Source of the DNA: Candidatus Moraniibacteriota bacterium
Lineage (GTDB): Bacteria; Patescibacteriota; Minisyncoccia; CAIUEV01; JAHKAQ01
Reading direction: 5' to 3'
Length of the DNA stretch: 56,555 bases
NCBI GenBank assembly: GCA_014729725.1
Contig: WJJL01000045.1
Span: 1-56,555 of the forward strand
Every line of letters starts with the position of its first letter. Position 1 is the stretch's first letter. The notes beneath the pieces were generated by a model that was not told the DNA's origin, ran no database searches, and was given only the letters and a program-made list of their open reading frames with translations. Both the position numbers and the translations under genes were made by a program. Below, in pieces: positions 1-40,878 of the stretch.

Positions 1-54
1 GCCGATGATCCGCAAGTTTTAGAATTAAAATTTTGGATATCGGCTGTTAAGTAA
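1..54 (+). CDS. 3' end of an unidentified gene (partial, enters from the left edge)
   Basis: Frame 1 is open from base 1 to TAA at 52-54 (...ADDPQVLELKFWISAVK*). Too short to name. Confidence 0.2.
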   Translation, partial: ADDPQVLELKFWISAVK

Positions 55-68
55 AGTATTTTTAAAAA

Positions 69-425
69 TCAACCTTTTATTTGATAAAATTCTATAACGT
101 TTCCTTCTGGATCTTCTGCCTGAAAAATTAAATAATTTTCAACTTTCTCTAAAGGCATGATAATTTTAGAATTTTTTTCTTTGATAATTTCAAGCATTCT
201 ATTGATATCTTCTACTTCAATGTTTGGGACTACATTATTTCCAATGGTTGTTTTTTCGTTATCAGCTGATGGATCAAATAACAGAAGTGAAATGTAATCA
301 AAGTCAAAAGAACTCATCCTTTTATCAAATGATGAAACCGGTGTGTCAAAAATATCTTCATAAAATTTTACTGCTCGCTTCATGTTTTTCACTGAAAGAT
401 AAATTGCTTTGATTTGAGGTTTCAT
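69..425 (-). CDS. VOC / glyoxalase-bleomycin resistance family protein
   Basis: 118 aa. N-terminus MKPQIKAIYLSVKNMKRAVKFYEDIF and C-terminal EDPEGNVIEF are typical of the glyoxalase/VOC fold. Confidence 0.7.
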   Translation of the reverse strand: MKPQIKAIYLSVKNMKRAVKFYEDIFDTPVSSFDKRMSSFDFDYISLLLFDPSADNEKTTIGNNVVPNIEVEDINRMLEIIKEKNSKIIMPLEKVENYLIFQAEDPEGNVIEFYQIKG

Positions 426-453
426 ATTATTAGATGATTTTTAAAAATATTTT

Positions 454-533
454 ATTTAACGTTTCTGTGTATCTGAAGTTTTTGTCTTTCTTCCTTATTG
501 TAATATAAAAGAAAGGAAAGGCAAAAATTTGGG
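454..533 (+). repeat. 5' half of structured palindromic unit 1: ATTTAAC-N14-GAAGTT-imperfect hairpin-AATTTGGG
   Basis: ATTTAAC at 454-460. CTGTGTATCTG at 465-475 is complementary to 1237-1247. GAAGTT at 475-480. Hairpin arms at about 479-496 and 508-527. AATTTGGG at 526-533. Unit 2 (1352-1519) has the same layout and the same 14-nt spacing. Confidence 0.7.
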
Positions 534-537
534 TGGA

Positions 538-594
538 GTAAAAGAGAAAATTTGAATATTTTTCCTTAATTTAAGCCCTTTTTCAATTTTAAAA
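538..594. repeat. Left arm of inverted repeat IR-a enclosing cassette 1
   Basis: GTAAAAGAGAAAATTTGAATATTT (538-561) is the perfect reverse complement of 1208-1231. GCCCTTTTTCAATTTT (575-590) is the perfect reverse complement of 1177-1192. The 13-15 nt between the two blocks has diverged. Confidence 0.85.
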
Positions 595-606
595 TTTGTT
601 TGTCGC

Positions 607-635
607 TTGACATATAGTAAGTTTTCTGCTATACT
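607..635 (+). promoter_or_regulatory. Consensus sigma70-type promoter of cassette 1 (TTGACA-17 nt-TATACT)
   Basis: TTGACA at 607-612, 17-nt spacer, TATACT at 630-635. The block TCTGCTATACTA is shared with the cassette 2 promoter. Confidence 0.6.
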
Positions 636-699
636 AATACGATACTAAGATAGTGTCAAAAGTATAGTACATTCACTTCAAAAATAGGAGGAAAACGAA

Positions 700-1119
700 A
701 TGGGAAAAGAGTATAACCTTCACTGGTACGGAGTGCTCACCATCGAAAACCTGCAACAAGTCGCAGACCTGCTCCTTCAGCTTCTTGACGGAAAACGCTA
801 CACTTTTGTGGCGGCAAACGAATTTTTTCGCTTCAAGCCAGAGGTCAGGACGGGTCAAACCCTCAGCCACAAGGGAGCCACGACGGGCAAGGCGATCAAC
901 GTCTATTATGATGAGAAAGAAAATCCGCCCAAGCACGCAGGTTTCAATGTTGGTGACACTTACGGAGTTTGGGGTTGCTCGACTAATCTGGCAACGGATG
1001 AATACGACAACGAATTTAACAACCCATACTTCGTTTTTGAGTACAACAAGGTTACGATCACTCACCGCGCGCCCGCTGGGCACTTGTTGTACTGGGTTGT
1101 TGCGATCGAACAAGATTAG
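700..1119 (+). CDS. Orphan 139-aa protein, no family recognised; roughly 50% G+C
   Basis: ATG is preceded by AGGAGG (686-691) at 8-nt spacing and followed by an intrinsic terminator. Composition is unlike every other gene in the window. I recognise no motif. Confidence 0.6.
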   Translation: MGKEYNLHWYGVLTIENLQQVADLLLQLLDGKRYTFVAANEFFRFKPEVRTGQTLSHKGATTGKAINVYYDEKENPPKHAGFNVGDTYGVWGCSTNLATDEYDNEFNNPYFVFEYNKVTITHRAPAGHLLYWVVAIEQD

Positions 1120-1134
1120 AGCAACCCCAAAGCT

Positions 1135-1176
1135 ACACCACCGTCATGTCTTCGGACCTCTGGCGGTGTTTTTTTA
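1135..1176 (+). terminator. Intrinsic terminator of cassette 1
   Basis: ACACCACCG...CGGCGGTGT stem with an inner GTC-TTCG-GAC hairpin, followed by a run of 7 T. Confidence 0.6.
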
Positions 1177-1231
1177 AAAATTGAAAAAGGGCTTATTAAA
1201 AATAAAGAAATATTCAAATTTTCTCTTTTAC
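1177..1231. repeat. Right arm of inverted repeat IR-a
   Basis: Reverse complement of 538-594 (16-nt and 24-nt perfect blocks). Confidence 0.85.
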
Positions 1232-1236
1232 GGAAC

Positions 1237-1254
1237 CAGATACACAGTGTTAAG
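1237..1254 (+). repeat. 3' closing arm of palindromic unit 1 (CAGATACACAG-T-GTTAAGT)
   Basis: CAGATACACAG (1237-1247) is complementary to 465-475. GTTAAGT fits GTTRRRY and opposes ATTTAAC (RYYYAAC) at 454-460. Confidence 0.65.
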
Positions 1255-1272
1255 TGAAGTTTTGCCGATTCA

Positions 1273-1301
1273 TAAAATTTACTTTTGAAATTACGAATCA
1301 A
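1273..1301 (-). promoter_or_regulatory. Weak relic of the host promoter-like element, pointing toward the VOC gene
   Basis: Minus strand reads TTGATT-cgtaatttcaaaagtaa-ATTTTA. It carries the AATTACGAA motif found in other host promoter elements. The -10 is poor. Confidence 0.25.
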
Positions 1302-1351
1302 CTTTTTTAATTGCACAAATATTTTCTTTTCTCGTTACAAGGCAAAATTTC

Positions 1352-1519
1352 ATTTAACGTATCCGAGTATGCGAAGTTCGCTTTTCGGATTTATCGATTA
1401 TTATTTGAATTATCTCATTACTATTTTAGCTGGTTTTTGCTTAAATTACCACTAAACAGAGAAAAGCGAATTTGGGAAAAAGGCGAGCCGAGCCTTTTTC
1501 CGCATACTCGGTGTTAGGC
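1352..1519 (+). repeat. Structured palindromic unit 2 (cargo-less copy), attC-like long imperfect hairpin
   Basis: Order of parts: ATTTAAC (1352-1358), N14 containing CCGAGTATGCG (1363-1373), GAAGTT (1373-1378), CGCTTTTC (1379-1386), long loop, GAAAAGCG (1461-1468), AATTTGGG (1469-1476), short hairpin AAAAAGGC-gagccga-GCCTTTTT (1477-1499), CGCATACTCGG (1501-1511), GTTAGGC (1513-1519). Confidence 0.75.
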
Positions 1520-1590
1520 GAGGGTGAGCGGAACGGAGTGGAGCGAAAGCGCAGCGCCCCCGTAGCGTTTTCTTTCAAATTATTTTTTGC
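1513..1590. repeat. Left arm of inverted repeat IR-b enclosing cassette 2, split by a 46-nt GC-rich insert
   Basis: GTTAGGCGA (1513-1521) and TTTTCTTTCAAATTATTTTTTGC (1568-1590) are perfect reverse complements of 2068-2076 and 2043-2065. In the right arm the two blocks are 2 nt apart. In the left arm they are separated by GGGTGAGCGGAACGGAGTGGAGCGAAAGCGCAGCGCCCCCGTAGCG. Confidence 0.85.
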
Positions 1591-1600
1591 GGTCGTGGGC

Positions 1601-1629
1601 TTGACAGATTAGCTGTTATCTGCTATACT
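1601..1629 (+). promoter_or_regulatory. Consensus sigma70-type promoter of cassette 2 (TTGACA-17 nt-TATACT)
   Basis: TTGACA at 1601-1606, 17-nt spacer, TATACT at 1624-1629. Confidence 0.6.
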
Positions 1630-1725
1630 AAACGTCAATAGTGAGAAATCTTTATTTAACCCAAAAAGGGTGGTTTCTCGCTATCGCGAGGATCTGCTCT
1701 TTACTAAACTCAAAGGAGGTAAAAA

Positions 1726-1971
1726 ATGGCACACAAAGAGTTGAAAGGTGATCGTTGTCCAAAGTGTAATGGCAGTGGAAGCGTGATTGCTGATGTTGGC
1801 GGATTTCATGCCGAAGTGGATTGCCCCGATTGTGCAGGTACCGGACTGGTAAACAGCCCAAACGCTTGCAAAAAGTGCAAAGGGTCTGGTAGCGTCATCG
1901 TTGATGCTGGTGGATTCAATGTCGAGGCAACCTGCGAACATTGCAATGGCTCCGGCTTGGAACCGCTTTAA
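1726..1971 (+). CDS. Stand-alone DnaJ-type cysteine-rich zinc-finger mini-protein (4 x CxxCxGxG), 81 aa
   Basis: Motifs CPKCNGSG, CPDCAGTG, CKKCKGSG, CEHCNGSG. Internal duplication of about 37 aa. GGAGG lies 6 nt before the ATG. A terminator follows. Roughly 50% G+C. Confidence 0.7.
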   Translation: MAHKELKGDRCPKCNGSGSVIADVGGFHAEVDCPDCAGTGLVNSPNACKKCKGSGSVIVDAGGFNVEATCEHCNGSGLEPL

Positions 1972-2001
1972 ACACCGCAAAAGCAGATCCGGTTCAATCG
2001 C

Positions 2002-2034
2002 AAGGCGTTGGCTTATATAGCTGACGCCTTTTTC
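2002..2034 (+). terminator. Intrinsic terminator of cassette 2
   Basis: AAGGCGTTGGC...GCTGACGCCTT stem followed by TTTTTC. Confidence 0.6.
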
Positions 2035-2042
2035 TTATATGA

Positions 2043-2076
2043 GCAAAAAATAATTTGAAAGAAAATGTCGCCTAAC
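2043..2076. repeat. Right arm of inverted repeat IR-b
   Basis: GCAAAAAATAATTTGAAAGAAAA-TG-TCGCCTAAC, reverse complement of the two blocks at 1568-1590 and 1513-1521. Confidence 0.85.
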
Positions 2077-2110
2077 TCCCTATATCCGAACCTCCAAATT
2101 TTTTATTATA

Positions 2111-2152
2111 ATTTAACAAAAAATTTAGAAGTTTTTTATACCCATAAGTATA
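2111..2152 (+). repeat. Degenerate or truncated third copy of the unit 5' half (ATTTAAC-N10-GAAGTT-hairpin)
   Basis: ATTTAAC at 2111-2117, GAAGTT at 2128-2133, small hairpin TATAC-ccataa-GTATA at 2137-2152. No closing arm is seen before the aspS stop. Confidence 0.4.
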
Positions 2153-2226
2153 GTATGTAGATAATTGTTTAGTCAATTAATTAGCCCTGGTTGTTTTTTA
2201 AAAAACAAACTTTTTTCAAACATCCG

Positions 2227-4101
2227 CTAAATTTCATCTTTCTTAACTTCTATCCTCAACTCATCCAAGACCTCTTTACTCACCTTTCTGGGAGCGCCTA
2301 ACATCAAATCCTGTCCTATGGCGGTTTTGGGGAAAGCCGTCATTTCGCGTACATTAGGTTCATCCCTAAGCAACATAAGCAACCTGTCTATTCCTTGACC
2401 TAAGCCGGCATGCGGAGGTGGACCGAATTTAAAAGCCTTCATTATGGGGCCAAAGTTTTTGTCAATTACTTTTTTGCTATAACCCACCGCTTCAAAAGAC
2501 TCGCTTAACATTTGTCCATCAGTACAACGCTCCCCTCCGGAAAACATCTCATAACCGTTGCAGGCAAGATCAAACTGTCTAGCCTTAATTTTTAAAAGCT
2601 CTTCAACTCCCTTTTTGCGAGCTTCTTTCAGCTGTTTTAAAGTACAGTCCGGGTTCGTAAAAGGATTATGACCGAACTGAACTCCGCTGCCTTTTTCCGA
2701 CATTCCATGAGCCCCCTCTTCCACTGGTTCAAAAAGAGGAAAATCATTAATCCAGCAAAAAGCCAAAATGTCAGGATCTCCCAATTTAAAACGCTCTTGA
2801 ATGTTTCTTCTGATAATATCCAAAATTTTAGCTGTTTCCGAGGGGTTGTCGGCGGCAAAAAAAATCGTGTCAAAAGGCTCCGGTTTTAAAGATCTTATAA
2901 ATGATAGATTCAAAAATTTGGCGATAGCTCCGCTAGCCTGACCTTTTTGATCGATTTTAATCCAGGCCAAACCAGGGGCGCCGGCGCCTTTAGCGATCTC
3001 GGTTAATTCATCGATATCTTTTCTCGAAAACTCCAAATCCCCTTTTCCGTAAACTTTTAAATTTAAATCTTTTGATTCAAAAGCTTTTTGTCTGGCTTTT
3101 GGAACTTTAAGCGCTCGAACATTTTGAGCTTGCTTGAAAATCTTAAAATCAGTTTTTTGAGCCTCCTTGGTAACATCCATTAATTCTAAAGCAAATCTCA
3201 AGTCCGGTTTTTCCGTGCCAAATCTTTCAATAGCTTCATTATAGGAAAATCTGGGCAACGGTTTTTGAAGTAATTTTTTACCTTCACCAAATTTGGTCAA
3301 AAATTGAGATAAAAAATCTTCGTACATTTGCCAAACATCCTCCTGTTTAACAAAAGCCATCTCTAAATCCAACTGATAATGCACATCTACATGACGATCA
3401 GCTCTGGAATCTTCGTCGCGAAAAGCCGGCGCAATCTGAAAATACTTATCCACACAGCTATACATTAAAAATTGCTTGAAAATCTGCGGTGATTGCGGTA
3501 AGGCGAAAAATTTCCCCGGCTCCCTCCTGGCCGGAACCAAGAAATCTCTAGCCCCCTCTGGAGCGGGCGCTGACAAAAGTGGGGTTTCTACTTCCAAAAA
3601 ATCTCTTTCACTGAACCAATTGCGAATAAACAAATTAACCGCTGCTCTAAATTTTAAATTTTCTTTCATCCTGTTTCTTCTAAGATCCAAATATCTATAT
3701 TCCAGCCTTAGCTCTTCGTTAACTGAAATCTTATCTTTGATTTCAAAAGGCGGCGTTTGAGACTTGCTCAAGATTACTAATTCATGCACCTCAATCTCGA
3801 TTTGACCGGTTTTAAGTTTAAGATTTTCCATTCCTTTTATCCTTTTTCTAACTAAACCTTTCACCTTTAAACACCACTCGGATCTAACTTGTTCTGCCTT
3901 TTGATGGGCCTGTTTATTAATTTTGGGATCAAACACAATTTGGGTAATTCCGTAAAAATCGCGTAAATCCACAAAAATCAAACCCCCATGGTCTCTTCTG
4001 GATTTCACCCAACCGGATAAAATTACCTCCTGACCGGTTTGATTTTCTTTTAATTCCCCACAAGAATTCGTTCTAAATTCATTTTTTGTTATTTTTGACA
4101 T
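2227..4101 (-). CDS. aspS: Aspartyl-tRNA synthetase (bacterial type with insertion domain)
   Basis: 624 aa. FFALPQSPQIFKQFLM and class II motif 3 GPPPHAGLGQGIDRLLMLL. Preceded by a T-box leader. Confidence 0.95.
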   Translation of the reverse strand: MSKITKNEFRTNSCGELKENQTGQEVILSGWVKSRRDHGGLIFVDLRDFYGITQIVFDPKINKQAHQKAEQVRSEWCLKVKGLVRKRIKGMENLKLKTGQIEIEVHELVILSKSQTPPFEIKDKISVNEELRLEYRYLDLRRNRMKENLKFRAAVNLFIRNWFSERDFLEVETPLLSAPAPEGARDFLVPARREPGKFFALPQSPQIFKQFLMYSCVDKYFQIAPAFRDEDSRADRHVDVHYQLDLEMAFVKQEDVWQMYEDFLSQFLTKFGEGKKLLQKPLPRFSYNEAIERFGTEKPDLRFALELMDVTKEAQKTDFKIFKQAQNVRALKVPKARQKAFESKDLNLKVYGKGDLEFSRKDIDELTEIAKGAGAPGLAWIKIDQKGQASGAIAKFLNLSFIRSLKPEPFDTIFFAADNPSETAKILDIIRRNIQERFKLGDPDILAFCWINDFPLFEPVEEGAHGMSEKGSGVQFGHNPFTNPDCTLKQLKEARKKGVEELLKIKARQFDLACNGYEMFSGGERCTDGQMLSESFEAVGYSKKVIDKNFGPIMKAFKFGPPPHAGLGQGIDRLLMLLRDEPNVREMTAFPKTAIGQDLMLGAPRKVSKEVLDELRIEVKKDEI

Positions 4102-4225
4102 AGTTAAAAATTAAATATTATACGGATAGCGCCGATTATCTGAAAGCTCTTTGCTTCTTACCTGCCGGCAAAGCAATAAGGATAAAACAAACGATTAGCC
4201 CTATTCATTATTATGAAAATTATAT

Positions 4226-4548
4226 TTAAAAAGCCGTCCTTACAAATCCAATACTACAATAAACAAGCTTCTTTGGATTTACAAGGACGGCTTTATTAAC
4301 CGCGGTGCCACCTTTTTTTATTTAGCCGTTGCCGGCCAAACCTCGATAACCTTTGAAAAATTTCAAAAAAATTATCAATTACGCATCTGAGGAATTTTGT
4401 AAACCGAAATCTTAAAGCTAAAAACCAAACAAAAGCGTAACAAAAATATTTTTCCAAGGTTGATTAGCTGTAACGGGCTAACCCGGAAAGTTCTACTTGT
4501 CCTAAAAGGACTTTCTTCTTTCAGCTAAGCGGTGTTGGCCGCCTCAAA
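4226..4548 (-). promoter_or_regulatory. T-box riboswitch leader controlling aspS
   Basis: Minus strand carries the T-box sequence AAAAAAGGTGGCACCGCGG (4301-4312 is GGTGGCACCGCG). It is followed immediately by a long terminator hairpin AAAGCCGTCCTTGTAAATCC...GGATTTGTAAGGACGGCTTTTT (4226-4294). A Stem I-like region lies upstream (GCTGAAAGAAGAAAGTCC...AGTAGAAC...CAGC). Confidence 0.8.
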
Positions 4549-4551
4549 GCT

Positions 4552-4580
4552 TTTATAATCAAAATTCTTCAATTATACAA
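4552..4580 (-). promoter_or_regulatory. Putative promoter of the T-box/aspS transcript
   Basis: Minus strand reads TTGTAT (4575-4580), 17 nt, TATAAA (4552-4557). Confidence 0.35.
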
Positions 4581-4920
4581 TTTTTATTACCCTAAAATTT
4601 AAATGATTTTGAATTATTTGCAAATTATAAATTTTAGGCTTAATTAAAAAAAACAATTCAGTTTCTTTTAAATTTAACAATAGCAAAAATCAATTAAAAA
4701 TCAATTAAAATTAATAGGAGTTGGGAAATTAAAGATTAATTGAAGACATGTTTGCTGAAAAATTCCTACTCCCCTCCTCTTTTTTTTATTTTTTAATAAA
4801 TCGTATGAGTTTTGGGTTATTGAATCAAGCTAATTGCCCGTTTTTTCCCTTAAAAAAGAAATGAAACAGGAGGTTAAATCTGCTTCAAGAAAACCGATTA
4901 AACAGCTTTGGCCGTTATTT

Positions 4921-5775
4921 TTAAGATTTTTCTACTAATTCATAAAAAGTTTCCCAGTCTTTTAAATTCAGTTCTTGAGCTCTGCTTGTTAAAGATTTAT
5001 TTGACTTATTAAGGAAAAATTTGGCTTTTTGTTGATAAATTTTGGAAACAGCGCCTAAATTATTAATTAAGGTTTTTCTGGGACTGGCAAAACCGATTTT
5101 TATTAATTTAAATAAATTTTGAATCCGGGGATCCTGATAATCCAGCTGTTTTTTGAGATTATAAAATCGAATTATCCCTGAATCAACTTTGGGTACAGGG
5201 TAAAAACATTGCTTTTTGACAGTTTGAACAAATTCCACATCATAAAAAAATTGCATCAGCAAAGCTAAAAAATTCATTTTAGGAGGTGTGGCGCAAATTT
5301 TTTTGCCCACCTCTTTTTGAAGCAAAAAAGTCATTGTTTGAGGTCTGTGGGTGATCTGTAAAAAATTTCTTAAAATCTTTTTGGAAATATTGTAAGGCAG
5401 GTTTGCAATTACTTTATAGTCAATTCCGCCGGGAGCTGATAATTGAAAAAAATTCTCCAAAACCGAATCCGGGTTAATTTTTAAAAAATCCTTTTGAATT
5501 AATTGAAGCGAGCGGTCTTTATATTTTTCGCTTAAATATTTATAATATTTTTTATCATATTCAATCGCCAAAACGGATTGAGTTTTTTTAATCAGTTTAT
5601 CCGTCAAAATTCCAAGACCCGGACCAATCTCTAAAACCTGATCATTTGAATCTAGATTGGAACTAGAAACAATTTTATTTAAAACTTCGGGGCATATTAA
5701 AAAATTTTGTCCCAAATTTTTTAAAGGCCTGGCCTGAATTTTTTTTAATTCTTGTTTAATTTGTTCAACTTGCAT
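4921..5775 (-). CDS. rsmA: 16S rRNA (adenine1518/1519-N6)-dimethyltransferase
   Basis: LKNLGQNFL and SAM motif VLEIGPGLGILT. 284 aa. Confidence 0.9.
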   Translation of the reverse strand: MQVEQIKQELKKIQARPLKNLGQNFLICPEVLNKIVSSSNLDSNDQVLEIGPGLGILTDKLIKKTQSVLAIEYDKKYYKYLSEKYKDRSLQLIQKDFLKINPDSVLENFFQLSAPGGIDYKVIANLPYNISKKILRNFLQITHRPQTMTFLLQKEVGKKICATPPKMNFLALLMQFFYDVEFVQTVKKQCFYPVPKVDSGIIRFYNLKKQLDYQDPRIQNLFKLIKIGFASPRKTLINNLGAVSKIYQQKAKFFLNKSNKSLTSRAQELNLKDWETFYELVEKS

Positions 5776-40099: not shown

Positions 40100-40878
40100 T
40101 GAAAACCTTTTTAATAATTTTAATCCTCATTCTAATTGCGGCAGGAGGTTTTGTATTATTTCGTTCCTATAAACAAAAAAACAATTTTCAAGCCGCTCAA
40201 AAAACCGACAGCCCCACCGTTAAGGATGATCGGATTAATGAAAAAAACAATTCTGCGCCTTCAATGAATCCCGAGCAAGAAAGTCAGGAGCTATCCAATG
40301 TAAACTCCGATAATCAAAATCAAGATTCCAAGAATTTATTAGAAAAAATCCAAGCTCTTGAGATTGTTTTAAAAAACAAAACTCTTTTTAAGGAGCTTCC
40401 TCTTCAATACAATAAAATCAAGGGTTTGAAAAAAATAAAACTAATGGATGAAAATCAAAATCCCATTAAAACTAAAGTGGCTCTAAACCAGGAAAATATT
40501 GATTTTCCCTCAATGATTATAACTGACAATCTAGAATTTCTCATCTATAAAGGCCCTGAAGACCCTGCTCCCAGCCACGCTATTTTAATTAAAAACAATA
40601 ATGACGCCAATAAAAATCTGGAAATTATGAAAAATTGGGAACCTTCAATGATAAAGGATCTAAAAAGCTTTATTTTGATCGGGGAAAAATACGACACAGT
40701 TGAGATAATTGAAAATCCACAATTCAAAGACAGTAGCTTTTCCGAAAATACGCGTTATTTCAACTTTACCAATGACAACGCGATCTCTCTGACTTACACG
40801 GTTAAAGACGATTATATAATAATTTTTAACAGTCTTTCTATACAGGAAGTTTTAAAAGAACATTTAAAAAATCTTTAA
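40099..40878 (+). CDS. Hypothetical membrane-anchored/secreted protein
   Basis: 259 aa, N-terminal TM. Its start abuts the previous gene's stop. Confidence 0.45.
   Translation: MKTFLIILILILIAAGGFVLFRSYKQKNNFQAAQKTDSPTVKDDRINEKNNSAPSMNPEQESQELSNVNSDNQNQDSKNLLEKIQALEIVLKNKTLFKELPLQYNKIKGLKKIKLMDENQNPIKTKVALNQENIDFPSMIITDNLEFLIYKGPEDPAPSHAILIKNNNDANKNLEIMKNWEPSMIKDLKSFILIGEKYDTVEIIENPQFKDSSFSENTRYFNFTNDNAISLTYTVKDDYIIIFNSLSIQEVLKEHLKNL

Follow-up and report, generated by a model that had tools for sequence, protein, structure and literature searches.

Contig WJJL01000045.1 of a Candidatus Moraniibacteriota bacterium (assembly GCA_014729725.1), analysed here over 56,555 nucleotides (the window), raises the question of how two small genes with their own expression signals came to lie within long inverted repeats between a VOC/glyoxalase gene (69–425, minus strand) and aspS (2227–4101, minus strand). 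The composition of this island (426–2226) departs from that of the rest of the window, and an earlier note on the sequence had proposed that it holds folding sites carrying promoter-equipped cargo, akin to integron attC sites or to clusters of attC sites lacking integron integrases (CALINs), or else a carrier resembling miniature inverted-repeat transposable elements (MITEs). The textbook example of gene capture in bacteria is the integron, defined by the integrase IntI with its special domain. Having compared the island with related loci, we consider it likely to be a short, recombinase-less gene-cassette array of an integron-like system that is widespread in the Candidate Phyla Radiation (CPR; Patescibacteria).

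Architecture of the repeat unit

Copies of a common repeat start at 454 and 1352, 898 nt apart. They share a 35-nt 5′ end at 80% identity, and the intervals 454–1255 (unit A) and 1352–1519 (unit B) have the same predicted three-way-junction fold, with z-scores of –13.4 and –5.66, respectively. Of the three copies listed in the earlier note, these two stood, whereas the one at 2111 did not: its spacing is N10, it is devoid of the AACGT..TAT core, and it drew no match from the covariance model described below at E=10 with filters off. The stretch concerned (2111–2133) lies in a separate 20-nt imperfect hairpin found by repeat search at 2089–2133, which is not a unit.

In the unit plan, an RYYYAAC box pairs with a distal GTTRRRY box and is followed by GT and a 3-nt bulge, the 11-bp helix P1, and a three-way junction with helices P2 and P3. 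The 7-mers ATTTAAC, GTTAAGT, GTTAGGC and GCCTAAC all fit these two patterns, bearing out the proposed agreement with the R″ and R′ boxes of attC. GAAGTT and AATTTGGG form the base of P2 (AAGTT/AATTT, with a G-T wobble) together with the junction Gs; taken as a lone motif, AATTTGGG is not enriched in the window. The combination TTAAC-N-GAAGTT occurs five times in the window against 0.94 expected, three of these within the island; the occurrences at 40826 and 48815 have no covariance-model match and are taken as chance.

Unit B (plus strand) is compact and complete. It runs through ATTTAAC, P1, a long P2, AATTTGGG (1469–1476), P3 (1477–1500), the 3′ strand of P1 (1501–1511), a single T and GTTAGGC (1513–1519), and it scores 71 bits with the covariance model, but its sequence belongs to the model's training set. 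Unit A has the same architecture plus a 645-bp gene module in the apical loop of P3. Its 5′ half (454–537, plus strand; partial model match over 476–543, 24.9 bits) comprises ATTTAAC (454–460), GT and the 3-nt bulge, the 5′ strand of P1 up to 474, the P2 hairpin (476–530, with AAGTT/AATTT at its base) and the GGG of the junction. The left arm of P3 (538–594, plus strand) consists of an outer 24-nt stem (538–561), the internal loop TTCCTTAATT and an inner cassette arm, TAAGCCCTTTTTCAATTTTAAAA (572–594), and is answered by a right arm (1173–1231, plus strand) with the inner arm at 1173–1195 and the outer stem at 1208–1231. The 3′ half (1232–1255, plus strand) contains GGAACC, the 3′ strand of P1, AGATACACAG (1238–1247), a T and GTTAAGT (1249–1255), P1 closing the unit at a length of 794 nt. 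Between the two units, a repeat search found a segment (1249–1358, plus strand) in which the inverted repeat GTTAAGTGAAGTTTTGCC/GGCAAAATTTCATTTAAC encloses 74 nt and no gene.

The inverted repeats of the island are real and far beyond chance. They join 538–561 to 1208–1231 (24 nt, 100% complementary), 572–594 to 1173–1195 (23 nt, 96%), 1568–1590 to 2043–2065 (23 nt, 100%) and 1513–1521 to 2068–2076 (9 nt, perfect, read from the sequence and lying inside a longer computed repeat). The earlier note had grouped them into two enclosing repeats of one kind, IR-a and IR-b; their existence was confirmed, but they differ in nature. IR-a comprises the P3 hairpin of unit A together with cassette arms, while IR-b is complementarity of cassette ends, running between the R′ box of unit B and the next R″-type box.

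Distribution of the unit

Further copies of the repeat, anticipated by the earlier note, proved plentiful. A pattern of 23 specified bases, drawn from four units and run on a collection of species-representative genomes, matched more than 118 loci, nearly all of them in CPR/Patescibacteria genomes. Loci used for comparison, including contigs chosen for a homologue of the first island gene, bear L numbers. Among the matches listed are Uhr-, Magasanik-, Falkow-, Kuenen-, Moran-, Kerfeld- and Peregrini-/Peribacteria as well as Gracilibacteria, Absconditabacterales and Saccharibacteria. A regular expression found 172 unit starts, 129 of which are closed by the P1 partner followed by GTT. Most closed units are compact (102 units of 79–200 nt, mostly about 135–145 nt), and the other 27 are long (240–1814 nt) and, like unit A, hold cargo inside the repeat.

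A covariance model (R1), built from an alignment of 33 diverse units (A1) with unit B among its training sequences, gave 240 matches in 100 loci and 78 in 33 further loci at E<1e-3, or 318 in total. On any one locus the R1 matches occupy a single strand almost without exception, at a spacing of about 400–900 bp; the densest array, L033, has nine co-oriented units in 5.5 kb. In the window, R1 finds a single cluster of units and no dispersed copies in 56 kb. Unit B is 91% identical to its counterpart in L097 and 85% to that in L018. The L005 contig, which carries the closest homologue of the first island gene, shows the same grammar with other 7-mers (GCACAAC/GTTGTGC), and a cassette-bearing inverted repeat in L005 is the positional homologue of the gene-free segment at 1249–1358.

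Units together with the CPR recombinase described below were also met in metagenome-assembled genomes (MAGs) labelled Gammaproteobacteria, Pseudomonadales, Bdellovibrionales, Flavobacterium, Woesearchaeota, Omnitrophota, Marinimicrobia and Mycoplasmatota (L032, L036, L042, L043, L054, L057, L097, L122 and others), one of them named 'HK-STAS-PATE-17'; these labels are probably taxonomic mislabels or binning errors. Six contigs from IMG/VR that are classed as viral (L009–L014, 15–42 kb) carry co-oriented arrays of 2–6 units each, and no array-type recombinase was found in the parts analysed. They are either CPR phages carrying arrays or misclassified contigs.

Covariation and strand-biased folding

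Across alignment A1, P1 is paired in 98.6% of cells, and compensatory changes occur at six of its 11 pairs; one pair, for instance, appears as CG 13 times, AU 10 times, GC nine times and UA once. The covariation score of P1 is 0.30, compared with 0.11 ± 0.009 after shuffling (0 of 500 shuffles reach 0.30) and 0.04–0.08 when the partner strand is slid. AACG/TGTT and AAGTT/AATTT are invariant in A1, each with a G-T wobble on the plus strand, and under DNA energy parameters the plus strand is the more stable one in 59 of 63 units (p=4e-11). Judged by this alignment, the structure of the unit is under selection. Integron attC sites show the same strand asymmetry of folding. Set beside attC, the unit has an invariant AAC/GTT, a conserved 3-nt bulge, an 11-bp covarying second helix and variable P2 and P3, but also a terminal three-way junction, strong sequence conservation and a bulge on the other arm.

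Strong covariation, conserved G-U wobbles and strand-asymmetric folding would also suit structured RNA elements that separate the small genes of an operon-like array and serve, for instance, in processing, insulation or stabilisation, and complementarity between the 5′ and 3′ untranslated regions (UTRs) of the second cassette suggests design at the RNA level. However, the better-folding strand is antisense to most open reading frames (ORFs) of the arrays, so array transcripts would carry the weaker fold; the island has no Rfam match even at E=10 (in a scan of 1–5000 with E up to 10, nothing better than E=7.8 fell within 426–2226); and neither the pairing of boxes across cassettes nor the linkage to a recombinase, both set out below, has an RNA-level rationale. 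We hold such an RNA function to be highly improbable.

Other structured elements were considered and rejected. The three-way junction brought hammerhead and other small ribozymes into consideration, but its strands measure just 1–3 nt and are without the conserved cores of these, and the island has no Rfam match. Retrons, IS200/IS605 elements and group II introns were dismissed on finding no reverse transcriptase (RT), no TnpA or TnpB and no Rfam match.

Cassette ends and array polarity

Within a unit, the outer 4-nt boxes pair at all four positions in only 22 of 143 cases, the mode being two of four, near chance. Across the intervening cassette, by contrast, they are fully complementary in 57 of 95 cases, and the pairing continues past the conserved GATGT/ATTTC: of the next 15 nt, 13 or more are paired across 36 of 95 cassettes (about 40%). 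In L018 (Uhrbacteria), where an array of five units and three minus-strand ORFs of 97–158 aa stops at the start of uvrA, each cassette has a private 12–20-nt inverted repeat at its ends. Complementarity that spans the cassette and not the unit is the pattern expected if a cassette and one unit can form a circle, in which the two cassette ends would flank the unit and extend its stem. This circle model accounts for the pairs GTTAGGCGA...TCGCCTAAC at cassette 2 of the window and GTTAAGTGAAGTTTTGCC/GGCAAAATTTCATTTAAC at the empty 74-nt slot.

The related arrays alternate units with single small ORFs that are co-oriented and mostly promoterless: 72 inter-unit ORFs run opposite to the recombinase gene versus 11 the same way, and 63 of the 72 have no consensus promoter. 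By inspection, many cassette products are apparently membrane or secreted proteins.

Selfish repeats of the repetitive extragenic palindromic (REP) or MITE type, spread by an unrelated mechanism, collecting in permissive intergenic regions and possibly nesting in each other's loops among small genes that are ordinary residents, would explain the nested hairpins, the common TTCCTTA-type loops and GAAGTT/GATGT-type flanks of P2, P3 and the inter-unit stems, and the high sequence conservation between distant genomes; many homologues of the first island gene lie on very short contigs, a hint that assemblies broke at repeats. Such repeats would not be expected, however, to show co-orientation, a uniform polarity towards a recombinase gene (29 of 29 loci, see below) or box complementarity across cassettes. 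The window, moreover, has one cluster and no dispersed copies, the inspected cargo ORFs encode small proteins and no transposase, and no target-site duplications are visible at unit ends by reading, without a systematic count. We consider this explanation very unlikely, and the MITE-like carrier envisaged earlier is not upheld, the units being clustered, co-oriented and recombinase-linked, with no target-site duplication visible.

A tyrosine recombinase and a proximal site at the array end

All ORFs encoding 130 aa or more were clustered across the loci and the families ranked by the number of loci in which they are present. The top cluster was a tyrosine recombinase of 270–285 aa found in 29 loci; the next families reached at most six loci. 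In all 29, the recombinase gene is on the strand of the units and 3′ to them, with no units past it. The protein scores 227–240 bits with NF040815 ('site-specific tyrosine recombinase/integron integrase'; cut-off 220), and its best match among solved structures is P. abyssi XerA (4a8e, E 9e-43).

After the cassette end and 80–115 nt upstream of the recombinase start lies a conserved proximal site, RYYY-AAC-NNN-TT.TAT(A/G)CGAA, which can be likened to the 5′ half of a unit and corresponds to attI in its position. A perfect palindromic core, TTATTATACGAA-GTGTTT-TCGTATAATAA, comes after it in some loci, and the cassette junction falls about 15 nt outside the spacer of this palindrome. The palindrome was seen upstream of the recombinase gene in L043, L112, L130 and L078. 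Both it and the unit arm TAT(A/G)CGAAGTT resemble the loxP arm, TATACGAAGTTAT; the likeness is probably a coincidence but hints at the place where the enzyme binds.

The window contains an attI-like half site, GCCTAAC-TCC-CTATATCCGAAC (2070–2091, plus strand), identified by sequence match to the recombinase-proximal sites and almost as in L023 and L046. No recombinase gene follows it, the 3′ end of aspS coming about 135 nt further on, and no tyrosine recombinase gene was found in the entire 56-kb window, as the earlier note had stated. In L097, unit B and the chassis of cassette 2 are followed by an attI-like site and then the recombinase; in L122, a homologue of the VOC gene (73% nucleotide identity) is followed by five units and then the recombinase. 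Taken with the half site at 2070–2091, these two layouts identify the island as the recombinase-proximal end of an array, the enzyme having been either lost from the array or, less likely, lost in assembly. Between the half site and aspS, a promoter-like sequence (TTGACT-18-TATACT, 10/12; 2147–2176, minus strand) is aimed into the array, at the position expected of a Pc-like promoter; it is a consensus match only.

Several observations weigh against an integron-like reading of the island. TIGR02249, the integron integrase family, is the first or second match of the array recombinases, yet they score only 196–244 bits against its cut-off of 265, and the alignment comes in two pieces, skipping profile positions after about 180. 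VchIntIA (2a3v) likewise aligns in two pieces, its residues 173–241 facing 27 aa in the CPR protein, from which we conclude that the IntI-specific insert is absent from the array recombinase. The bulge of the unit lies on the arm opposite the one that we take to bear the extrahelical bases of canonical attC sites (attCaadA7). Both cassettes of the window are reversed relative to the ORFs of other arrays and expressed from their own promoters, one of them within a unit, and the integron model gives no account of how cargo enters a hairpin loop. With no recombinase in the 56-kb window, nothing links its array to an active enzyme, and the comparative data come wholly from MAGs and metagenome contigs. 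Finally, the array enzyme could simply be the Xer protein of the lineage, as has been assumed for the 'Cand' subgroup (PMC8138268).

Given the missing insert, the system is better described as an integron analogue than as a canonical integron. The attC/CALIN reading of the earlier note is largely supported; a place among integrons proper, whose recombinase would have the IntI hallmark domain, is not. In L068, the recombinase (3273–4220) has an insertion of about 35 aa of low complexity, …NGRNVPIPSSSPLGPDAFGAGSLRDRGRQQSE…, near the position of the IntI domain; TIGR02249 is its top match at 244 bits, still in two pieces.

An Xer/dif array is a further possibility: the recombinase would be the dimer resolvase of CPR bacteria, the proximal site its dif, and the units folded dif mimics of small elements, like the integrative mobile elements exploiting Xer (IMEX), that accumulate at dif. 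The system would then be exploiting Xer and would not be a platform dedicated to gene capture. The attP site of CTX phage is a folded dif mimic of this kind and is used by XerCD. An XerA-like enzyme without the IntI insert, the palindromic core at the proximal site of several loci and the occurrence of arrays on viral-classed contigs all speak for this possibility, as does the treatment of the 'Cand' subgroup as Xer substitutes (PMC8138268). That subgroup comprises simple, Xer-related tyrosine recombinases from Candidate phyla; the work describing it presumes an Xer role and mentions neither cassette arrays nor structured sites (Smyshlyaev et al. 2021, PMC8138268). The cassettes, on the other hand, are single small ORFs with no element-maintenance genes; one conserved unit sequence and structure, not a set of element-specific sites, extends across phyla; the 5–9 co-oriented, mostly promoterless ORFs that read away from the recombinase resemble a platform; and the cassette junction is displaced from the palindrome spacer. 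We rate the Xer/dif explanation as unlikely. It departs from the integron-like reading mainly in the primary role of the enzyme, not in mechanism.

Cargo of the island

The two genes of the island, ORF1 (700–1119, plus strand, 139 aa) and ORF2 (1726–1971, plus strand, 81 aa), have G+C contents of 0.493 and 0.504, compared with 0.327 for the window and 0.233–0.395 (median 0.328) for its other 46 ORFs, confirming the foreign composition reported earlier. The AT-rich arms and units of the island have the composition of the host. Both genes are complete expression units, as the earlier note had described. A promoter scan placed TTGACA-17-TATACT with a TG extension (11/12) at 607–635 for ORF1 and at 1601–1629 for ORF2 (both plus strand), and AGGAGG ribosome-binding sites (RBSs), read from the sequence at 686–691 and 1714–1719 (both plus strand), sit 6–8 nt ahead of the ATG. 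Each gene ends in a terminator made of a hairpin and a T-run: that of ORF2 (2002–2030, plus strand) was returned by the scan, and that of ORF1 (about 1136–1175, plus strand) was unflagged by the scan, read by eye and found conserved in L005 and L007.

Cassette 1 (562–1206, plus strand) comprises inner arms, promoter, 5′ UTR, ORF1 and terminator, and is 82% identical to L005 628–1278. Its place is between two units in L005 but inside P3 of unit A in the window, which implies movement independent of the units. Inverted pairs of its inner arms (AAGCCCTTTTT.AAATTTT) are found again round promoter-bearing cassettes in L005, L018, L033, L095 and L102. It is possible that such arms let a large insert be extruded as a stem-loop, which would leave the folded site intact.

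ORF1 has 54 homologues, none annotated and most on short contigs, the closest being that of L005 (86% amino acid identity). G11, K32, Y34, P47, R50, W91, P109, Y110, R123 and W132 are near-invariant in the family. The AlphaFold model (mean predicted local distance difference test, pLDDT, 93.8) is beta-rich with a single helix and has no match in the PDB at E<=0.001, the best being YojF (1njh; TM 0.45, E 6e-3); searches of Pfam, PHROGs and PADLOC gave no family, or just matches at E>0.08. Exact-protein look-ups found neither ORF1 nor ORF2 on record. In L001, L002, L003 and L007 the homologues are solitary, with no units nearby, from which it follows that ORF1 is not obligatorily array-borne. 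In L002 (Paceibacterota), direct repeats at 3375–3420 and 4442–4487 (CAAACG.T.T.TG..CAAG.CAGACAGGGATAATCGTCCGCCTAC) separate the ORF1 homologue and a small ORF and adjoin a tRNA gene and a GIY-YIG ORF. R1 does not match these repeats, which may represent a second, diverged family of cassette-separating repeats.

ORF2 encodes two CXXCXGXG zinc-finger repeats of the DnaJ central-domain type, its matches being of zinc-finger type only. It is housed in the chassis of cassette 2 (1568–2065, plus strand), formed by the arms 1568–1590/2043–2065, promoter, 5′ UTR, RBS, 3′ UTR and terminator, in which an inverted repeat between the two UTRs (1690–1702/1979–1990) brackets the RBS and ORF2. Arms, promoter, UTRs and terminator are conserved in L097 (4733–5165) and L060 (about 4726–5220), and the three chassis hold three mutually unrelated ORFs; the exchanged segment of RBS and ORF is bracketed by the 13-bp inverted repeat GGATCTGCTCTTT/AAAGAGCAGATCC. 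Adjacent to the left arm, and on that one cassette arm only, lies a 46-nt element of high G+C (0.72), GGGTGAGCGGAACGGAGTGGAGCGAAAGCGCAGCG... (1522–1567, plus strand). Copies at 90–96% identity follow R′ boxes in L097, L059, L050 and L111, shorter matches occur in L098, L104 and L130, and L005 is rich in similar GC-rich repeats over 1–460.

A sharp G+C step together with near-consensus expression signals might point to an assembly chimera, contamination or a vector-like insert at 426–2226, and the missing recombinase after the attI-like site could reflect a collapse between repeats. Yet units, chassis and the VOC neighbour recur in independent assemblies (L097, L122, L018, L005/L006 and L060), and the AT-rich arms and units agree with the host in composition. 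The recurrence of the same parts in independent assemblies rules out a chimera for the island as a whole, and an artefact of this kind is extremely improbable; a local collapse may nonetheless have removed the recombinase.

Regarding the surroundings, a tRNA/tmRNA scan found no such gene close to the island. Upstream of aspS, a T-box leader (4280–4556, minus strand) was matched by Rfam RF00230 at 49.9 bits (E 4.7e-9), below the gathering score of 93 and with a long insertion in the middle of the match.

A model for the array

We infer recombination, as well as the strand used for it and the point of crossover, from the architecture and linkage described above. The unit would fold, probably as single-stranded DNA, into a stem closed by AAC/GTT, with the 3-nt bulge, P1 and a junction with P2 and P3, and a recombinase related to XerA and IntI would recombine such folded sites at or beside the AAC/GTT core. 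Cassettes would leave as circles and re-insert; each cassette end, with its 4-nt box and its part of the further inverted repeats, would supply one half of the stem that flanks the unit in the circle. In complete arrays, most cassettes are promoterless single ORFs reading away from the recombinase; a minority, both cassettes of the window among them, are expression modules in reverse orientation, placed either between units or in the apical loop of P3 or P2. The window presents, in order, unit A with cassette 1 in its P3, an empty slot, unit B, cassette 2, the attI-like site and aspS. Barring a recombinase supplied from another part of the genome, its array is probably static, and its present output would be the constitutive expression of two small proteins.

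The proposal of attC/CALIN-like folding sites with promoter-equipped cargo thus gains support from the family of units, their arrays, the box pattern, the linkage to a recombinase and the 27 of 129 closed units with cargo inside.

Relation to known systems

With integrons and CALINs, the CPR arrays share single-ORF cassettes and imperfect-palindrome sites bounded by AAC...GTT boxes; as with the bottom strand of attC, the better-folding strand of the unit is antisense to most cassette ORFs. Likewise, one end carries the gene for a recombinase of the IntI/Xer clade, located behind a simple proximal site and divergent from cassettes that mostly lack promoters, and the box complementarity fits circular cassette intermediates. 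Arrays without a recombinase, such as that of the window, have their counterpart in CALINs. By the usual criterion of at least two attC sites and no integrase, the window offers two units whose starts are 898 nt apart and an attI-like half site, and its 56 kb encode no recombinase; the assignment hinges on accepting the units as attC.

In contrast to integrons, the CPR recombinase is about 275 aa long and without the IntI-specific insert. CPR units keep a conserved sequence from phylum to phylum (AACGTWT..G..TAT..GAAGTT ... AATTTGGG ... TGTT) and terminate in a three-way junction where attC sites have a single variable loop, and their R-box stem is prolonged by 5 + 15–25 nt of cassette-specific complementarity. 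Cargo may occupy the apical hairpins of the site, and some cassettes are full expression modules of which the ORF alone is swapped. Foreign DNA inside the hairpin of a recombination site is also a feature of IS1111-attC insertion sequences and group IIC-attC introns; unlike these, the CPR cargo has no transposase or RT and consists of a promoter-ORF-terminator module with inverted arms of its own.

Other likenesses lead to Xer systems. CTX phage attP with XerCD, IMEX and Acinetobacter pdif modules all involve an Xer-type enzyme without the IntI insert and modules bounded by its sites; single-stranded DNA could, once folded, stand in for a duplex core site, as in CTX attP, and the proximal site adjoins the recombinase gene, as in XerS/difSL and XerH/difH. 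The best family and structure matches of the array recombinase are the 'Cand' subgroup and XerA of Archaea. The CPR units, however, are structured sites of 80–200 nt and not dif-like sequences of roughly 28 bp (two 11-bp arms and a 6–8-bp spacer), with a palindromic core only by some recombinase genes; they are co-oriented, where the sites flanking pdif modules are inverted; and their cargo comes as single small ORFs in long arrays, unlike the phages and islands of IMEX.

A literature search found no description of integrons, attC sites or similar arrays in CPR/Patescibacteria, and the IntegronFinder 2.0 paper mentions neither Patescibacteria nor Saccharibacteria. Some of these arrays may have been recorded as CALINs in large surveys and passed over without remark.

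Implications

Besides their biology, the arrays have practical consequences: the 23-base signature and the covariance model allow them to be found readily, assemblies are likely to break at them and binning to be misled by them, and the compact promoter-UTR-terminator chassis, its ORFs exchangeable, is a natural expression module for organisms without genetic tools. A cassette platform that runs on a plain Xer-like enzyme would, if confirmed, bear on the origin of integrons from Xer recombinases and reveal what attC recognition can do without.

Much of bacterial diversity belongs to the CPR, whose members have very small genomes in which few mobile elements have been recognised. We see about an even chance that CPR bacteria and some of their phages possess a gene-capture platform of their own, parallel to integrons, with an Xer-type enzyme devoid of the IntI insert, sequence-conserved three-way-junction sites folding as single strands, long private complementarity of cassette ends and self-contained chassis that accept different ORFs and can be parked inside the sites; such a platform, whether an independent invention or a deep sister lineage, would be a major route of gene exchange. 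The cassette pool spans CPR classes and viral-classed contigs, and, if indeed shared, this stock of small cassettes, most of them uncharacterised, would be an obvious reservoir for functions in host interaction and phage defence.

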